A stretch of DNA of 64,000 nucleotides from Candidatus Omnitrophota bacterium. Lineage in GTDB: Bacteria > Omnitrophota > Gorgyraeia > Gygaellales > Profunditerraquicolaceae. How positions within the stretch are numbered: position 1 is the first letter of the stretch; each line of letters opens with the position of its first letter. The position numbers and the translations under genes are program-made. The stretch covers positions 3,979-67,978 of the forward strand of contig JBAZNT010000010.1 of NCBI GenBank assembly GCA_041649115.1. Direction: 5' to 3'. Positions 3,801 to 46,076 of this stretch are shown piece after piece. Below the pieces are notes generated by a model, which had not been told where the DNA came from, did no database searches, and worked only from the letters and a program-made list of their open reading frames with translations.

Positions 3801-6749
3801 TTGGATATGTTGGTTTTTATCAAGAAGCAATTACTTAAGAACAAGCAGGGCACGCTGAAGAGGAAGTATCCGGGGGTCAGTATCGCGCTTCATCCCGAGA
3901 TGCCCAGCCCTTCCCTCGCCAAGATGGTAGAGCTCGCCGGGATTGTGGATAAGGTTAATAAGCTTGAGCCGGCGATACAGTCCCTTTCAGACAGCGGGAT
4001 AAAAGCCAAGACCGCCTCTTTCAGGGAAGCGATCAATGCCAAGGCCGTAGAGTATGACGCGGCTATTAAAGAGCTGGAAGAGGCGATGCTGTCGGTGGCA
4101 ATGCCGGAAGAAAAGGAGAGGCTTAAGGAGAAGCTCAGGGATACCAGGAATAAGATATTCAGCGATATCCTGCCTGAGGCATTTGCAGTTGTGAGGGAGG
4201 CCTCGCGCCGCACCATAGGCCTTAGGCATTTTGACGTGCAGATCGCGGGAGGGGTGGTTTTGCATGAAGGCAAGATTTCGGAGATGGCTACCGGGGAAGG
4301 CAAGACCCTGGTAGCAACGCTGCCGGCTTATCTGAATGCGCTCCTTGGCAGGGGGGTGCACGTGATTACGGTTAACGATTACCTGGCGCGCCGCGACCGG
4401 GAATGGATGGGGCCGGTTTATGAATTCCTGGGTTTAAGCGTCGGGGTCATCCAGCACGATATGCCGGACGAAGAGAGAAAACTCGCCTATGCCTGCGATA
4501 TTACTTACGGCACAAATAACGAGTTTGGTTTTGATTACCTGCGCGACAACATGAAATATAACGTAGGTGACCTGGTGCAGCGGCCGTTCTATTATGCCAT
4601 CGTAGATGAGGTTGACTCCATCCTGATAGACGAGGCGCGCACCCCGCTGATTATATCCGGCCCGGCTGAGGAATCTACCGAAAAGTATTATACCGCCAAG
4701 GTCATCAGCCAGCAGTTGAAAGGCCGCAGGGTAACCGAGGCCGATGAGATTGAGGCCAAGCACCGGGGTGAAAACCTCGCCGTCGGATATGACTATCTTG
4801 CCGACGAAAAGAACAATACCATTTCTTTAACCGAGGAGGGCGAGGCCAAGGCCACCAAGCTCTGGGGCGTAGAAAGCCTGCACACCATCGAGACCACGGA
4901 ATACCGCCACCATAGCATCCAGGCGCTCAGGGCAAAGGAGTTCTTCAAGCGCGACGTCCATTACGTCGTCAAGGACGGCCAGGTCATTATCGTAGATGAG
5001 TTTACCGGCAGGCTCATGCCGGGGAGGCGCTGGTCCGACGGCCTGCATCAGGCGGTAGAGGCAAAGGAAGGAATGAGGATTGAGCGGGAGAACCAGACGC
5101 TCGCCACCATTACCTTCCAGAATTATTTCCGCATGTACGAGAAGTTGGCCGGCATGACCGGTACCGCCTTTACCGAGGCCAATGAGTTCAAGTCCATTTA
5201 CAAGCTCGACGTCGTGGTTATCCCCACCAACAGGATGCTGATGCGCAGCAATTACCCTGACCGCGTTTATAAGAGCGAAAAGGAGAAGTTTGGTTTGGTG
5301 GTAGAGGAGATCTCCGAGCTTTACAAGGCCGGCAGGCCGGTTTTGGTAGGGACGATTTCGATTGATAAGTCCGAGCGGCTATCGGAGATGCTCAAGCGCC
5401 GCGGCATCTCCCATCAGGTGCTGAATGCCAAATATCACGAACAGGAGGCGCAGATTGTAGCCCAGGCCGGACGTTACCGGGCAGTGACTATCGCTACCAA
5501 TATGGCGGGGCGCGGCACAGACATACTTCTCGGAGGCAATCCCGAATATATGGCGCGCAGCTTTGCGCGGGAGAAGCTGCCTGCGGATGAGGCGAATTAT
5601 AAGGAGGAATACCTTAAGATCTTAGAGCGCTACCGTAAACAGGCCCAGGAGGAACACGATAAGGTCGTATCTTTAGGCGGGCTCCATGTCATAGGCACGG
5701 AGCGCCATGAGGCCAGGCGTATTGATAATCAGTTGCGCGGGCGCTGCGGCAGGCAGGGGGACCCCGGCTCTTCGAGATTCTATGTTTCCCTGGAAGACGA
5801 CCTCATGCGGCTGTTCGGGTCTGACCGCCTGATCGGGATTATGAACAGCCTCGGCCTGGAGGAAGGGCAGGTTATCGAGCACCCCTGGGTCACTAAGTCC
5901 ATTGAGATTGCGCAGCGCAGGGTCGAGCAGCACAATTTTGAGATACGCAAGCAGATACTGGAATATGATAACGTGATGAATAAGCAGCGTGAGGTAATCT
6001 ACGCCCAGCGCCGCGAAATACTGGAGGGTGTTTCGTTAAAGGAGTATATCCTGGAGGTTCTAAGGAAGGTGCTTGGCGAGCTGGTATCAACCTATGCCCC
6101 TGAATCCGGCGAGATAGACTCGGTGGGCCTGGAGAATATCTTAAGATTAAGGTTCGGGTTGCAGCTTGATAGCGCGCAGATCGATAATTCTGCGGGGAGG
6201 CAGATTGAGGAAGATGTTTACCAGAAGGCCTCCCTTGCTTACGATGCCAAAGAGCGCGATATCGGAAGCGATGTTATGCGCCAGTTGGAACGCATGGTTT
6301 TCCTGCAGATTATCGACAACAAATGGAAAGACCACCTTTATGCCATGGATAGCCTGCGCGAGGGTATCGGCCTGCGCGCCTATGGCCAGCGCGACCCCTT
6401 GATTGAGTATAAACGCGAGTCATTTCAGATGTTCAGCGACATGATGAGCGGCATAGAGGAAGAGGCCTTGGATATTATATTTAAGTTGCAGCCTGCCAGG
6501 CCCAGCGCTCCCCTGCGCGGCGCATTCAGTGCGGTATCCAAAGAGATGCTTCATCCCGAGGCAGAGGCATTTTCCTCTCCTGCGGCTACGGAGGATAAAC
6601 ATGTGACAGCACCCCCCTCCGTTACCCCTGTTTCGCAATCCTCCCATATTAAGGTCGGCAGGAACGATCCCTGCCCTTGTGGGAAAAAAGATCCTGTAAC
6701 TGGCAAGCCGGTTAAATATAAAAAATGTTGTTATCCAAAATATGGATAG
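3801..6749 (+). CDS. secA: Preprotein translocase ATPase SecA (alternative start ATG 3807)
   Basis: 982 aa. DEAD-like motor blocks are present ([43 protein letters not shown]). The C-terminal Zn-finger tail is CPCGKK...KKCC. Confidence 0.95.
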
Positions 6750-41376: not shown

Positions 41377-42222
41377 ATGAAAAGGAATATAAAATTTCAA
41401 GGCAATCCCCTGACCCTGGTAGGCAGGGCCATTGGAGTCGGCAGGTCAGCGGCAGATTTCAGGGTAGTCTCGCAGGAATTAAAAGAGCTTGGCCTCGGAG
41501 ACTTTCGCGGTAAGACTAAAGTAATTACCACCTTTCCTTCCCTGGATACGCCGGTCTGCGACCTGCAGGTGAGGGAATTCAATAAAAGGGCGGTCGGGTT
41601 TTCTTCTGACGTGGCAGTCATAGGCATAAGCAAGGATCTCCCCTTTGCCCAGAAGAGGTTCTGTCAGGACCACGGGGTCAAGAATGCCGTAATTGTTTCG
41701 GATTACAGGTATTCCTCCTTTGGCATCAATTACGGCCTTTTGATTAAAGAGCTTAATCTCCTGGCGCGCGCCGTAATCATTGTTGACAAAAGCGACCTGA
41801 TAAGATATATCCAGATAGTAGAGGAGCTGACTATCCCCCCGGACTATGAGGCAGCGTTGAAAGCCCTGGAAGATTCAGCGCAGGCCGACGCAGCCGGCAA
41901 CAGAGAGCCTCTTTTGCGCTGCAGGCCATGCGAAGGCGGGGTTGCGGCATTGTCCAAAGGAAAGGTTGAGAGACTCCTGGCCGAGCGCCGGGGGTGGATA
42001 TTGGTTGAAGACAAAAAATTAGTCAAGGAATTAAAATTCGGGGATTTTATAGAAGCCAAGTATTTCCTGGATATTGTCAGCGCCATTGCCGAGGAGCAGG
42101 GGCATCACCCTATTCTTACCATCAGTTATAATAAGTTAAAGATAGCCCTTACTACCCATGCTGCCGGAGGCTTGACTGATAATGATTTTATCATGGCCGG
42201 TATCATTGATGAACTTGAATAA
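41377..42222 (+). CDS. Fusion protein: atypical 2-Cys thiol peroxidase (Tpx) plus a pterin-4a-carbinolamine dehydratase (PCD/DCoH)-like domain
   Basis: Residues 1-165 are Tpx-like (FPSLDTPVCDLQ peroxidatic Cys, RFCQD resolving Cys). Residues 185-281 are PCD-like (CRPCEGG, GW, EEQGHHP, TTHAAGGLTDNDF). Confidence 0.8.
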   Translation: MKRNIKFQGNPLTLVGRAIGVGRSAADFRVVSQELKELGLGDFRGKTKVITTFPSLDTPVCDLQVREFNKRAVGFSSDVAVIGISKDLPFAQKRFCQDHGVKNAVIVSDYRYSSFGINYGLLIKELNLLARAVIIVDKSDLIRYIQIVEELTIPPDYEAALKALEDSAQADAAGNREPLLRCRPCEGGVAALSKGKVERLLAERRGWILVEDKKLVKELKFGDFIEAKYFLDIVSAIAEEQGHHPILTISYNKLKIALTTHAAGGLTDNDFIMAGIIDELE

Positions 42223-42242: not shown

Positions 42243-43433
42243 ATGGCTGTTGAGATAAAGAAGGATATCTACTGGGTAGGAGCGGTGGACTATAATGCCA
42301 GGAGCTTCCATGGCCATACCTATAATACCTCCAGGGGGACTACCTATAATTCTTACCTTATAAAAGACGAGAAGGTCGCGCTGGTGGATACCGTTTACGA
42401 CCCCTTCGCTTGCGAGATGATTGCCAGGGTCAAGGAGATTGTTGAGCCGCGAGAAATAGATTATATCATCGCCAATCACGTGGAAACCGACCACTCCGGG
42501 GCGCTCCCTGATATTATGCGCCTGTGCCCTAAGGCAAAGGTTCTGGGAACAGCCAAATGCAGGGAGGGGTTATGGAAGCATTATTACGGCAGCTGGGACT
42601 TCCAGACCTTAAAGACCGGGGATAAGATTAATCTCGGCAGAAGAGCGCTTTCTTTTATCGAGGCCCCGATGATACATTGGCCGGACAGCATGTTTACCTA
42701 TTGCCCTGAGGAAGAATTACTTATGCCTAATGACGCCTTCGGGCAGCATTACGCTACTTCCAAGAGGTTTGACGACGAGGTAAACCAGGCGGAGCTTATG
42801 GATGAGGCTGCCAAATATTACGCTAATATACTCTGGCCGCTGGGAAGCGTGATCCTCAGGAAAATAGAAGAGGTGCAGAAAACAGGAATCTCCATAAAGA
42901 CAATTGCGCCCAGCCACGGGGTTATCTGGCGCCGCGATCCCGCAAGGATTATCAACGCTTATATGTCTTGGGCGAAGAGCGAGTTGCGCCCCAAGGTAGT
43001 AATAGTCTATGAGACGATGTGGGGAGCGACGGATAGGATGGCGAGGAACATTGCCGAGGGGATTATTGCCTCGGGGATAGAGGTTAAATTATTCGACGTC
43101 ACGGCATCCGACCGCACTGAGGTAATCAAGGAGATGCTTGATGCCGGGGGGTATCTGGTCGGCTCTTCTACCCACGATAACGGCATGCTGCCGGCGATTG
43201 CCGGATTCCTGCAGTTTTTTAAAGGCCTGAAGCCCCGGGGAAGGATTGCAGCGGCATTCGGATCCTTTGGTTGGGCCGGGGGTGCCTTAAAAGAGATTGA
43301 AGAAGAGTTAAGACAGGCGGGGGTAGAGGTAAAACAGGAGGGGCTGGGTGTCAAATACGTGCCGGATACCCCGGAATTAAAGAAGTGTTACGATTTCGGC
43401 AAGGAGTTCGCCCGTAGCCTTAAAACATCCTAA
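42243..43433 (+). CDS. Flavodiiron protein (rubredoxin:oxygen/NO oxidoreductase, FprA/ROO type)
   Basis: The metallo-beta-lactamase-like domain carries HVETDHSGA (HxExDH). A C-terminal flavodoxin domain is present (VVIVYETMWGATDRMA). Confidence 0.92.
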   Translation: MAVEIKKDIYWVGAVDYNARSFHGHTYNTSRGTTYNSYLIKDEKVALVDTVYDPFACEMIARVKEIVEPREIDYIIANHVETDHSGALPDIMRLCPKAKVLGTAKCREGLWKHYYGSWDFQTLKTGDKINLGRRALSFIEAPMIHWPDSMFTYCPEEELLMPNDAFGQHYATSKRFDDEVNQAELMDEAAKYYANILWPLGSVILRKIEEVQKTGISIKTIAPSHGVIWRRDPARIINAYMSWAKSELRPKVVIVYETMWGATDRMARNIAEGIIASGIEVKLFDVTASDRTEVIKEMLDAGGYLVGSSTHDNGMLPAIAGFLQFFKGLKPRGRIAAAFGSFGWAGGALKEIEEELRQAGVEVKQEGLGVKYVPDTPELKKCYDFGKEFARSLKTS

Positions 43434-43434
43434 G

Positions 43435-43653
43435 GCGCCCGGTGCCAAAAGGCACCTGGCGCTAAGCAGTACCCAACGCTAAACGATATACCCGACCTAA
43501 GCGGATAGGTCGGTATCCGCCTGGTAATTAACACCTGGCGCTAAGCGGAATTGCGTTGGTGTCCTGTTTAATGATTAACACCCGGCGCTAAGTGGTATTG
43601 CGTTGGTGTGCAGTTAACATTATTACACCCAATCCTAAAGGATGGATTGGTGT
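43435..43653 (+). repeat. Phased array of structured hairpin units (H0 43435-43462; H1 43488-43516; H2 43531-43562; H3 43578-43609; H4 43625-43653)
   Basis: H1-H4 share one architecture: 5 bp, a 1-nt pyrimidine bulge, 5 bp, and an 8-11-nt loop. The units carry compensatory base changes. G-U pairs are allowed only in + strand RNA. See the findings for detail. Confidence 0.7.
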
Positions 43654-43679
43654 TCTCTTTCTAGAGAAGGAGGTGGGGG

Positions 43680-43745
43680 ATGGCTTGTGGATGCGGATGC
43701 CGTAAGGCGAAGAAAGCGAAGAAGAAGACCAAGAAGAAAAAGTAG
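43680..43745 (+). CDS. 21-aa Cys/Lys-rich micro-protein (MACGCGCRKAKKAKKKTKKKK)
   Basis: A near-perfect SD (AAGGAGGT, 43667-43674) lies 5-6 nt upstream of ATG 43680. The stop is TAG 43743-43745. It is not in the ORF track because it is too short. Confidence 0.45.
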   Translation: MACGCGCRKAKKAKKKTKKKK

Positions 43746-43755
43746 TTTTGAATAC

Positions 43756-43781
43756 GGCGCGGCAGGTGATTTTGCCGCGCC
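43756..43781 (+). other. Perfect 9-bp GC-rich hairpin (intercistronic stabiliser or weak terminator)
   Basis: GGCGCGGCA (43756-43764) pairs with TGCCGCGCC (43773-43781) around an 8-nt loop. Only a poor U-tract follows (GCGCTATTTAT). Confidence 0.5.
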
Positions 43782-43808
43782 GCGCTATTTATAGGAAGGG
43801 GGTTTAAG

Positions 43809-43967
43809 ATGACAAAATACCGTTGCACAGTCTGTGGTTATATCTATGACCCGCAGACAGGAGATCCCGAGCATGACATAAAACCAGGCACTGCATTCGA
43901 GGACCTGCCTGATACCTGGGTTTGCCCGGAATGCGGCGTAGGCAAGGATATGTTCGAGAAAATATGA
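43809..43967 (+). CDS. Rubredoxin
   Basis: 52 aa: [52 protein letters not shown]. It has the two CxxCG knuckles and the conserved YxYDP, FEDLP and W residues. It is not in the ORF track because it is shorter than 60 aa. Confidence 0.93.
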
Positions 43968-44437: not shown

Positions 44438-44914
44438 ATGGGCAATATATTTTCCGGCAGCGAGGTTATAGAGCTTGGCATTGAGATTGAAAAGAACGGC
44501 CGCGATTTCTACAATGCGCTGGCAACAAAGTCTAAGAGCGAAGACAGCCGCGCTACCTTTTTAAAACTGGCCACAGAAGAAGAGAAGCACCTCGAGGCAT
44601 TCAACGGGATGCTAGAGAGGGCCGGCTCAAGCGATATGGTAGAGTCCTATTCCGATGAATACAGCGGCTATATGCGCGCCTTGGCCTCCGAGAGCATCTT
44701 CACCCGGAAGGACAAGGGTAGGCAGATCGCCGCCGGAGTAAAAACAGAAGCGGAGGCAATTGAGTTAGGGATAGGCTTTGAGAAGGATTCCATCCTTTTC
44801 TACGAAGGGATGAAGAAGGCGGTTCCGGAATATGACCACAAGGTTATCGATGAACTTATTGCGCAGGAGCAGTCTCACCTTCGCCTCCTGCGGGGGCTGA
44901 AGATGGGCAAATGA
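44438..44914 (+). CDS. Ferritin-like diiron four-helix-bundle protein (rubrerythrin/erythrin family, no rubredoxin domain)
   Basis: It is an internal duplication with E...ExxH twice: EIEKNGRDFY...EEEKHLEAF and GFEKDSILFY...QEQSHLRLL. Confidence 0.75.
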   Translation: MGNIFSGSEVIELGIEIEKNGRDFYNALATKSKSEDSRATFLKLATEEEKHLEAFNGMLERAGSSDMVESYSDEYSGYMRALASESIFTRKDKGRQIAAGVKTEAEAIELGIGFEKDSILFYEGMKKAVPEYDHKVIDELIAQEQSHLRLLRGLKMGK

Positions 44915-44925
44915 AAGGAGAGGCC

Positions 44926-45162
44926 ATGGACAAAAAGGTAAAGATCTACAGTACTCCTACCTGTCCGTTTTGCATCCGTGCCAAGCAATACCTCAAGGAC
45001 AACAATGTTGTTTTTGAGGATGTCGACGTATCCGGCAATCAGCAGGCGGCGGAAGAAATGGTATCTAAGAGCGGTCAGATGGGAGTTCCGGTACTGGATA
45101 TCGACGGAGAGATTATTGTCGGTTTCGACAAAGACAGGATAAGCCAGCTCCTCGGGCTTTGA
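44926..45162 (+). CDS. Glutaredoxin-like small redox protein
   Basis: 78 aa. The active site is CPFC (YSTPTCPFCIRAK). The GVPVL...G block is present. Confidence 0.85.
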   Translation: MDKKVKIYSTPTCPFCIRAKQYLKDNNVVFEDVDVSGNQQAAEEMVSKSGQMGVPVLDIDGEIIVGFDKDRISQLLGL

Positions 45163-46076
45163 AGATGTACGACCTTATTATTATCGGCGCAGGCCCGGCA
45201 GGCATCACCGCCAGCGTCTATGCGGCACGCAAGGGCATGCGTCTTCTGGTGATCAGCCGTGATATCGGCGGCCAGGCCGCCTGGAGCGGAGATGTAGAGA
45301 ATTATACCGGCTATCAGTTCATCAGCGGGCCGGAGTTGGCTGCCAAGTTTGAGGAACACCTGCGCAGATTCCAATTAGAACTGAGGGAAGGCGAGACAGT
45401 CATAGATATCTCCAAGGATGGCGAGCAGGTCGTAGTGAGGACCTCCGAAAACCTCTACCAGTCCAAAACCGCAATTATCTCTTCCGGTAAGAGCTCCCGC
45501 GAACTCAATGTCCCCGGCGAAAAAGAATTTAAAAATAAAGGGCTGACTTACTGCGCTACCTGCGACGGACCGCTCTTTCTGGGCAAGAAGGTAGCGGTAA
45601 TCGGCGGAGGCAATTCCGCCCTGGATGCGGCTATACAGCTGATGCGGATAGCACGCCATGTCTACGTCATCAACAATTCCGAAGAACTGGGCGGTGATAG
45701 CCTGATGCGCGAGAAGGTCCTGGCCGCCGCGAATGTCACGGTTTATAATCATACGCGCGTAAAGGCCGTCTTGGGGGAAAAATTTGTTGGCGCGCTTGTC
45801 ATCCATGGCAAGGGCAGCGAGGAAAAACTGGGGGTGGAGGGGGTATTCGTAGAGATTGGCCTTATCCCGAATTCTCAGTTTGCCGGAGGTATCCAGAAGA
45901 ACGAAATAGGAGAAATAAAGGTAAACTCTCTTAATGAAACCAGCGCCCCCGGCATCTTTGCTGCCGGAGATGTCACCGACGTAGCTCAGAAGCAGATTAT
46001 CATTGCCGCCGGCGAAGGCGCGAAGGCCGCGCTTTCCGCATTCAATTATCTGGTGCAGCATAAATTCTCTTCATAA
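45159..46076 (+). CDS. trxB: Thioredoxin-disulfide reductase family flavoprotein
   Basis: The FAD motif is IIGAGPAG. The redox-active motif is CATCDG. The NAD(P) motif is VIGGGNSALD. The motif GDV is also present. Confidence 0.88.
   Translation: MKMYDLIIIGAGPAGITASVYAARKGMRLLVISRDIGGQAAWSGDVENYTGYQFISGPELAAKFEEHLRRFQLELREGETVIDISKDGEQVVVRTSENLYQSKTAIISSGKSSRELNVPGEKEFKNKGLTYCATCDGPLFLGKKVAVIGGGNSALDAAIQLMRIARHVYVINNSEELGGDSLMREKVLAAANVTVYNHTRVKAVLGEKFVGALVIHGKGSEEKLGVEGVFVEIGLIPNSQFAGGIQKNEIGEIKVNSLNETSAPGIFAAGDVTDVAQKQIIIAAGEGAKAALSAFNYLVQHKFSS

Follow-up and report, generated by a model that had tools for sequence, protein, structure and literature searches.

In a Candidatus Omnitrophota genome we identified a 21-codon open reading frame (ORF), lying between a flavodiiron protein gene and a rubredoxin gene, that on comparative signals is very probably a real, translated, and conserved micro-protein gene. 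The ORF is part of a 64,000-nucleotide stretch of contig JBAZNT010000010.1 (GenBank assembly GCA_041649115.1, positions 3,979 to 67,978 of the forward strand) – referred to below as the window, with all coordinates counted from its first letter. Its overall best explanation, which we hold at a confidence just short of even, is that it belongs to an unannotated family of micro-proteins that would act in trans in oxygen-stress defence, carrying a thiol- or metal-binding head on a polycationic tail. The two elements that define the gene are:

43680..43745 (including the stop), + strand: micro-ORF coding sequence, product MACGCGCRKAKKAKKKTKKKK, a 21-amino acid (aa) micro-protein with a Cys-Gly head and a polylysine tail
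43667..43674, + strand: Shine-Dalgarno (SD) sequence AAGGAGGT of the micro-ORF, 5 nt before the ATG

A first-pass annotation of the window, made from the sequence alone, had placed the start (ATG, 43680–43682), the stop (TAG, 43743–43745), and the SD at these positions, and all of these coordinates hold. It had also rated the SD among the strongest in the window; the octamer has only three copies across the 64 kb. The polybasic tail that it described is present, though it comprises 14 residues (11 of them Lys or Arg) rather than 12, with a net charge of about +11. The head of the window copy reads C-G-C-G-C (C-x-C-x-C) and contains no CxxC. A single ORF of 21 codons is, by itself, not beyond chance, and the case for a gene comes from comparison.

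The micro-ORF recurs in related genomes and in metagenomes

We fetched 80 loci around relatives of the window flavodiiron protein (63–79% identity), nearly all from Candidatus Omnitrophota metagenome-assembled genomes, and scanned them in six frames for stop-terminated Lys/Arg-rich tails with at least two Cys – a filter that is blind to position, strand, start codon, and SD. The same type of ORF was present in 13 of these 80 loci, which had been chosen only by their flavodiiron gene. These ORFs have 16–26 codons and encode M-x-C-G-x-C-G followed by a lysine run (e.g., MSCGVCGPRKPKKKAKKKKK, MGCGCGCGTKKKKKKAKKK, and MSCGCCSPKKSKKKVTKKSPAKKKKK). With the window copy they make up a context-selected set of 14 sequences, all of which lie on the operon strand and start with ATG. 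GGAGGT is found 5–6 nt upstream of the ATG in 12 of the 14, and the remaining two have close variants (GGGGGAG in locus L018 and GGAGGG in L047; L numbers designate individual loci throughout). The micro-ORF is upstream of rubredoxin in 12 of the 14 loci, and within the Omnitrophota set it accompanies rubredoxin even when rubredoxin lies on the other side of the flavodiiron gene.

We also scanned JGI/ENA metagenome contigs with a context-blind DNA pattern composed of an SD, ATG, any codon, Cys, Gly, an optional codon, Cys, and then three Lys codons within 30 nt. The scan returned at least 120 stretches, from which an unrelated 77-aa zinc-finger family (MKCGICK...) and a few long ORFs were removed. 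Among the matches listed were at least 81 micro-ORFs (at least 69 distinct peptides) of 13–32 codons that end just after the lysine run – a property that the pattern did not demand. Viral contigs scanned with the same pattern gave no match. A GGAGG(T) site 5–7 nt ahead of the ATG is common to both sets, apart from the variants in L018 and L047. The recurrence of the same ORF type and SD spacing in 13 related genomes and at least 81 metagenome contigs places the ORF far above chance.

Consistent with selection on the encoded peptide, substitutions within the 14 context-selected sequences follow the reading frame. The Cys3 codon is TGT in eight and TGC in six, with no replacement, and the Gly4 codon is GGA or GGG in 13 of 14. 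AAA and AAG interchange freely within the lysine tail, where G content is 14, 5, and 55% at codon positions 1, 2, and 3, a 3-nt periodicity. In the near-identical pair L027/L042, four of the five differences within the ORF are synonymous and the fifth exchanges Arg and Lys. Disruption of the frame in orthologous regions had been singled out by the first-pass annotation as the observation that would speak against a gene; we found that frame, ATG, SD (apart from the variants in L018 and L047), and stop are kept, and that changes are mostly synonymous or conservative. Conservation is also local: between L057 and L068, identity is 84% in the ORF and 75% in the hairpin that follows it, against 43–49% in flanks that are essentially unalignable. 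The ORF and its hairpin thus form an island of conservation amid unalignable spacers.

The lysine codons carry a further signal. Long A-runs cause ribosome slippage, and the mean longest A-run of 85 distinct family sequences is 5.45 nt, compared to 6.41 nt when the same Lys codons are permuted among Lys positions (z = −5.7; 0 of 500 shuffles as low). A-runs never reach 10 in the family, while about 8% of shuffles do. The short A-runs therefore point to selection for faithful translation of the whole tail, so that the full-length peptide would matter.

These data bear directly on the possibility that there is no gene here at all – that the ORF arose by chance in a purine-rich spacer, or that the true product is a Phe/Leu-rich ORF on the opposite strand. 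A lone ORF of this length is unremarkable, and long antisense ORFs do span the region (43661–43828 on the minus strand of the window). However, start, SD spacing, frame, and stop of the micro-ORF are kept over more than 90 loci, whereas the antisense ORFs vary in frame, start, and length (21–140 aa), have an SD in only one case, and are missing from L018. A stop-free, T/C-rich antisense strand yields such ORFs automatically. We rejected the hydrophobic antisense ORF as the product on these grounds – it is not conserved and it follows from the stop-free strand – and the comparative data largely refute the chance or antisense reading as a whole, which we regard as extremely improbable.

Micro-ORFs accompany varied oxygen-stress genes

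The first-pass annotation had noted that the micro-ORF adjoins rubredoxin and diiron genes, and Pfam assignments agree:

42243..43433, + strand: flavodiiron protein gene, upstream (Pfam ODP and Flavodoxin_1)
43809..43967, + strand: rubredoxin gene, downstream, with its own SD GGAAGGGGG (Pfam PF00301, E = 7.9e-26)
44911..46076, + strand: glutaredoxin-like and thioredoxin-reductase genes of the same cluster (Pfam)

These genes belong to a longer same-strand cluster that includes, 5' of the flavodiiron gene, a ferredoxin-NAD(P) reductase-like gene, VIT1, and a peroxiredoxin fusion gene and, 3' of rubredoxin, a PNPOx-like gene, a rubrerythrin-like gene, glutaredoxin, thioredoxin reductase, and NifU. 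Glutaredoxin-like and thioredoxin-reductase genes recur downstream of micro-ORFs in many loci.

The metagenome matches, found without regard to context, extend this association. Among the matches listed, 39 of the 81 micro-ORFs lie within 3 kb of homologues of the window genes for superoxide reductase, rubredoxin, ferredoxin, rubrerythrin, flavodiiron protein, PNPOx-like protein, glutaredoxin, and thioredoxin reductase, and most of these 39 are directly adjacent to oxygen-stress genes on the same strand. The next gene downstream varies and can encode rubredoxin, a 1Fe superoxide reductase (PF01880), a 61-aa 4Fe-4S ferredoxin (PF13370), rubrerythrin or a rubrerythrin-like protein, glutaredoxin, or a flavodoxin-fold reductase; the first three are the commonest. 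The description of an unusual, translated-looking small gene tied to a rubredoxin/diiron cluster is thus borne out by comparison.

Three features of the cluster were observed alongside the micro-ORF. The peroxiredoxin fusion gene (41377–42222) joins a peroxiredoxin (Redoxin/AhpC-TSA) to a pterin-4a-carbinolamine-dehydratase-like (PCD) domain, and the fusion (‘Tpx-PCD’) is kept in several related loci. An ATGA overlap (43964–43967) joins the stop codon of rubredoxin to the start codon of the PNPOx-like gene and suggests translational coupling of the two genes. Between the flavodiiron gene and the micro-ORF, the spacer holds a 47-nt tandem repeat in 2.2 copies (43527–43653) with a diverged third copy (43435–43471), each copy forming an ACACC...TTGGTGT hairpin; the whole spacer (43434–43810) has a fold z of −4.3. 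The repeat was present in 0 of 206 fetched loci, including the closest relative, L001, where the micro-ORF begins 21 nt past the flavodiiron protein stop. Its appearance is that of a sequence inserted or duplicated locally, or of an operator array.

The family is distinct from characterized cysteine micro-proteins

Searches of Pfam and NCBIfam with six family peptides, at E-values up to 10, gave only a meaningless hit to DUF7196 (E = 1.3), and a profile search of the PDB returned nothing relevant. By exact look-up, 0 of 10 family peptides were present in a collection of 15 billion proteins. The motif strings appear in no paper of the library searched, and literature searches on small lysine-rich CxxC proteins and on Omnitrophota with rubredoxin found nothing relevant. 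The first-pass annotation, which knew of no characterized family like this one, was right on that point: all of the Pfam, NCBIfam, PDB, and motif-string searches were negative. The family is missing from the catalogue checked because standard gene callers skip such short ORFs. It is a previously unannotated small-protein family, nearest in kind to cysteine-motif micro-proteins and desulforedoxin, and it fits the full definition of none of rubredoxin, desulforedoxin, archaeal zinc-finger micro-proteins, attenuators, HMA proteins, or type I toxins.

Desulforedoxin and rubredoxin resemble the family in being very small cysteine proteins of anaerobe oxygen-stress clusters with a C-x-x-C-G knuckle. 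Rubredoxin (PF00301), however, has two such knuckles about 30 residues apart in a 45–55-aa fold that binds one Fe, whereas all Cys of the 21-aa micro-protein fall in one cluster and it gave no Pfam hit at E up to 10. The desulforedoxin/desulfoferrodoxin N-terminal domain (PF06397) places a C-x-x-C-G and an adjacent C-C pair in about 36 aa; the six family peptides do not hit it, while a neighbour protein in L052 does, so the model works on such genomes. In both reference families four Cys in two motifs sit on a folded beta-hairpin core, in contrast to the single cluster of 2–4 Cys, the lack of a core, and the 12–20-residue lysine tail of the micro-protein.

Other small proteins differ in similar ways. 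Known cysteine micro-proteins – the archaeal C(P)XCG zinc-finger proteins Brz of Halobacterium (PMC2253796) and HVO_0758 of Haloferax (PMC10716476), and the CxxC-x17-CxxC proteins of Methanosarcina (PMC12704099) – have four Cys in two motifs. The archaeal zinc-finger micro-proteins are likewise encoded by small ORFs, contain CxxCG-type motifs, and are often overlooked by annotation, but they are 40–70 aa long, with at least two motifs, one zinc per chain, and no polylysine tail. The peptides described here carry a single motif within about 20 aa, and a (Cys)4 site, if there is one, would have to be assembled from more than one peptide. HMA copper chaperones have a ferredoxin-like fold of about 70 aa with M-x-C-x-x-C, as opposed to a 21-aa peptide with C-x-C-x-C and no Pfam hit. 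Type I toxins and hydrophobic membrane peptides are a poor match to a peptide that has no hydrophobic stretch and whose antisense F-rich ORFs are not conserved.

A hairpin follows most micro-ORFs

Two predicted RNA structures flank the window micro-ORF:

43755..43782, + strand: GC-rich hairpin after the micro-ORF (12 pairs, loop of 4), terminator-like, with a weak T tract CGCTATTTAT
43654..43673, + strand: possible SD-sequestering hairpin UCUCUUUC / GAAGGAGG, in silico and probably not functional

The upstream structure derives from the first-pass proposal that the pyrimidine tract CUCUUU (43655–43660) pairs with AAGGAG (43667–43672) and sequesters the SD. The pairing itself is possible and, in ViennaRNA, extends to 8 bp with two G-U pairs and a 4-nt loop (43654–43661 with 43666–43673; −7.5 kcal/mol). 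Its stability is nonetheless at the level of shuffled sequence (z = 0.05). Among homologues, predicted SD accessibility spans 0 to 1, upstream sequences are unrelated, and the ORF often begins 10–30 nt past the stop of the preceding gene. We rejected a functional SD-sequestering hairpin since it is neither above shuffles nor conserved.

The downstream hairpin begins 9 nt past the stop and has a fold z of −3.2; it is strong, with a weak T tract. From a single-hairpin search, we found that a hairpin of −10 kcal/mol or below follows 61% of family members compared to 40% of control stops, and that a terminator-like site follows 24% compared to 3%. Nearly all Omnitrophota-type members have a post-ORF hairpin of −18 to −34 kcal/mol, in most cases 0–20 nt past the stop, and stem sequences differ among them. 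The minimum free energy of the 75 nt downstream did not distinguish the family from controls. In loci with only 17–32 nt between the stop and the next gene (L011, L140, L092, and L107) the hairpin is missing, as it is in a probable archaeal subgroup described below. Its most plausible function is to terminate or stabilise a short, abundant mRNA while some transcription reads through.

With its strong SD, its following hairpin, and its place ahead of oxygen-stress genes, the short ORF also has the outline of a cis-acting leader peptide, in which translation of the micro-ORF would set termination at the hairpin and hence expression of rubredoxin and later genes. The trp, his, thr, and pheA leader peptides are similar in having about 15–25 codons, a strong SD, a run of one codon type, and a hairpin ahead of the operon, and the micro-ORF is a translated-type ORF with an SD in the corresponding position. 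The GC-rich window hairpin 9 nt past the stop, the excess of terminator-like hairpins over control stops, and the joint conservation of ORF and hairpin all favour such a reading.

Several observations set the micro-ORF apart from these leaders. No antiterminator was found in 39 members with strong hairpins, in which the 5' arm pairs upstream with a median probability of 0.0006 and the hairpin forms with a median probability of 0.95; for want of an antiterminator, classical attenuation was rejected. The absence of the hairpin from the four loci named above and from the probable archaeal subgroup means that some homologues dispense with it. The residues Cys3 and Gly4 are maintained through synonymous codon changes, unlike in classical leaders, and the head motif is also found within larger proteins. 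The codons of the peptide have no logical link to the genes that follow: these encode rubredoxin, superoxide reductase, ferredoxin, rubrerythrin, and glutaredoxin rather than Lys or Cys biosynthesis. The related suggestion that the Lys run modulates ribosome transit into rubredoxin is not supported either, given that rubredoxin has its own SD 63 nt downstream of the micro-ORF, beyond the 12-bp GC hairpin, and that the next gene differs elsewhere. We consider a leader peptide or attenuator improbable. It is the least likely of the three roles offered by the first-pass annotation, behind a thiol- or metal-reactive micro-protein and a nucleic-acid-binding peptide.

Some lineages share RNA elements around the micro-ORF. 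Post-ORF hairpins 5–12 nt past the stop have the common stem GGGCAGATA...TATCTGCCC in L084, L086, L093, L141, L154, L156, L166, L177, L189, and L198, which may reflect close relatedness or a specific binding site; other lineages have unrelated GC stems. A structured leader AATTCGCAGACG..CTATAACTTACGTCGCT..CCGTAAGTTATCTGCTCATT, about 100 nt upstream of the micro-ORF and running into the SD, is common to L089, L110, and L123 and may be an RNA element of one subclade. A search of the whole window against Rfam found no family.

Head and tail recur as modules in related small proteins

We observed the Cys head and the lysine tail in other small proteins. An unnamed family of 44–48 aa (P0001–P0029; loci L131 and L201–L206) fuses the head M-[SG]-C-G-x-C-G-P-K-K to a desulforedoxin-like Fe(Cys)4 body, with the consensus MGCGxCGPKKxAKYVCxKCGKEExREVKEGEVVKSCCGQxMxKK and no Pfam domain. 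Its AlphaFold2 model (pLDDT 81 overall) combines a confident beta-hairpin body, for which desulforedoxin 1dxg is the best PDB match, with a low-confidence, flexible N-terminal head. The genomic contexts of these fusion proteins are variable and uninformative. Conversely, small desulforedoxin-like proteins (CVPCG ... CCG) with C-terminal polylysine tails are encoded close to micro-ORFs in L044 (1180–1383), L138 (1.3 kb upstream of the micro-ORF), and L198. A similar protein in L052 (about 4310–4483), a locus without a micro-ORF, is the one that hits PF06397. The fusion family and the polylysine-tailed proteins together indicate that the Cys head and the polylysine tail are protein modules that recombine with Fe(Cys)4 mini-domains.

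This modularity raises the possibility that the peptide is a miniature metal centre or a docking peptide for the acidic iron proteins encoded nearby. One Fe(Cys)4 site could be built from two peptides, as a split rubredoxin/desulforedoxin site, or the polylysine tail could link rubredoxin or ferredoxin with partner enzymes; the peptide would then work as an electron carrier, a chaperone, or an electrostatic promoter and not as a protectant bound to nucleic acids. Such a role would suit the commonest downstream genes, whose products – rubredoxin, the 61-aa 4Fe-4S ferredoxin, and 1Fe superoxide reductase – are all acidic (net charge −4 to −5), and CxxCG is the Fe(Cys)4 knuckle. Fusion of the head to desulforedoxin-like bodies and the polylysine tails on desulforedoxin-like proteins in the same clusters point the same way. 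Variable Cys count and spacing and the lack of CxxC in the window copy, on the other hand, sit badly with a defined Fe(Cys)4 geometry. In the fusion family, conservation and model confidence are lowest in the head, and the cluster already has a genuine rubredoxin gene beside the micro-ORF. Taken together, we judge this role unlikely.

A putative cationic thiol in oxygen-stress defence

On the basis of composition and genomic context, we lean slightly towards the micro-protein being a trans-acting part of oxygen-stress defence. The family build comprises an N-terminal Met and a small residue, a flexible Cys/Gly head with 2–4 thiols (usually C-G-x-C-G), and a polylysine tail resembling those of histone H1. 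A very strong SD would drive translation, and the stable hairpin present in most genomes would probably end or stabilise a short, abundant transcript, with some read-through to the next gene. The polycationic tail may then concentrate the peptide on polyanions – DNA, RNA, or the acidic iron proteins encoded alongside – where the thiol head could serve as a local dithiol antioxidant, an Fe or Zn ligand, or both, with two peptides needed per (Cys)4 site. The glutaredoxin/thioredoxin-reductase pair of the cluster might recycle the peptide disulfide. As a specific mechanism, such a cationic dithiol or metal buffer on polyanions is possible though doubtful.

Background on each part fits the scheme. 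C-x-x-C-G is the knuckle of rubredoxins and zinc ribbons, and (S/A/P)KK(A/P) lysine tails bind DNA. H1-like lysine-rich tails (SPKK/AKKA/PAKKA) occur in eukaryotic H1, Chlamydia Hc1, and mycobacterial HupB, where they are joined to folded DNA-binding domains of at least 100 residues. The micro-protein tail is likewise Lys with interspersed Ala, Pro, Ser, and Thr, including a literal SPKK in L049, but it makes up nearly the whole protein. Its composition fits the repeated (S/A/P/T)-K-K-type units of nucleic-acid-binding tails, and it may bind DNA or RNA. In cationic thiols such as trypanothione, glutathionylspermidine, and the aminothiol radioprotectors, the polycation raises thiol reactivity and concentrates the thiol on DNA; these compounds condense on DNA and shield it from radicals. 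With two Cys-Gly thiol units joined to a polycation, the micro-protein would be a functional analogue in outline, though trypanothione-type thiols are conjugates built by enzymes, not ribosomal peptides. By this analogy, the gene may encode a polycationic dithiol made on the ribosome and equivalent to the trypanothione-type thiols. In strict anaerobes it would cover DNA, RNA, or acidic iron proteins and provide antioxidant and iron-buffering capacity that can be regenerated, with the glutaredoxin/thioredoxin-reductase pair of the operon holding it in the reduced state. We regard this extension as rather unlikely.

A number of points weigh against a dedicated role in oxygen-stress defence. The micro-ORF was found within 3 kb of the flavodiiron gene in only 13 of 80 related loci, and is therefore not an obligatory part of the cluster. 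Homology between low-complexity peptides of about 20 residues cannot be proven, and part of the shared build, M-x-C-G-(x)-C and three Lys codons, was prescribed by the pattern used for the metagenomes. The number and spacing of Cys are variable (CGxCG, CGCGC, CGCC, CCGC, and CCCC). Because spacing varies and the C-G-C-G-C of the window copy contains no CxxC, a rubredoxin-type knuckle is not strictly conserved, and a flexible thiol head is favoured over a rigid knuckle. Both gene and role are proposed for organisms that are uncultured and represented by their sequences alone. Finally, a large subgroup (MSCGKCGKKTKKKAKK...) sits in a different context, without oxygen-stress genes. Its neighbours include an archaeo-eukaryotic (PriS-like) primase small subunit and a Ras-family GTPase, which make the subgroup probably archaeal, and its existence argues either for convergence or for a broader function such as binding to nucleic acids or ribosomes.

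A second conserved, unannotated ORF, encoding a 32-aa basic protein, was observed about 40 nt past the micro-ORF stop in L081, L085, L097, L109, L126, L142, L149, L160, L172, L176, and L193. Its consensus is MA.KKK.SKKAGKAAKKK.YY.GKEVRA.KSR and it has no Pfam family.

The probable archaeal subgroup, away from oxygen-stress genes and paired with this 32-aa basic ORF, is what a general small basic nucleic-acid- or ribosome-binding protein (a zinc knuckle with a basic tail, akin to very small ribosomal or chromatin proteins) would predict, with the position in oxygen-stress clusters being an accident specific to the Omnitrophota lineage. The tail does resemble H1-like and ribosomal basic tails. 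Against this, the 39 of 81 context-blind matches listed that fall in oxygen-stress clusters lie beside several different genes, which makes an accident hard to argue, and no ribosomal family of Pfam or NCBIfam was matched. We consider a purely general binding role quite unlikely.

Implications for anaerobe oxygen defence

The micro-ORF recurs in at least 90 independent contigs, yet 0 of the 10 peptides looked up are present in the 15-billion-sequence collection. SD spacing, synonymous variation, and the avoidance of slippery A-runs are comparative signals that can validate a micro-gene of this size in uncultured phyla. If the peptide is a polycationic dithiol, such a compound would be widespread in uncultured bacteria, and probably archaea, and would have been missed by all gene callers.

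The gene is located within the best-known oxygen-defence module of anaerobes, which comprises flavodiiron protein, rubredoxin, superoxide reductase, rubrerythrin, glutaredoxin, and thioredoxin reductase. Were its product to act as a stoichiometric thiol or metal buffer, or as a docking factor, it would add a new component to that module. The micro-protein looks like a missing small component of the way in which Omnitrophota and other uncultured anaerobes cope with oxygen.

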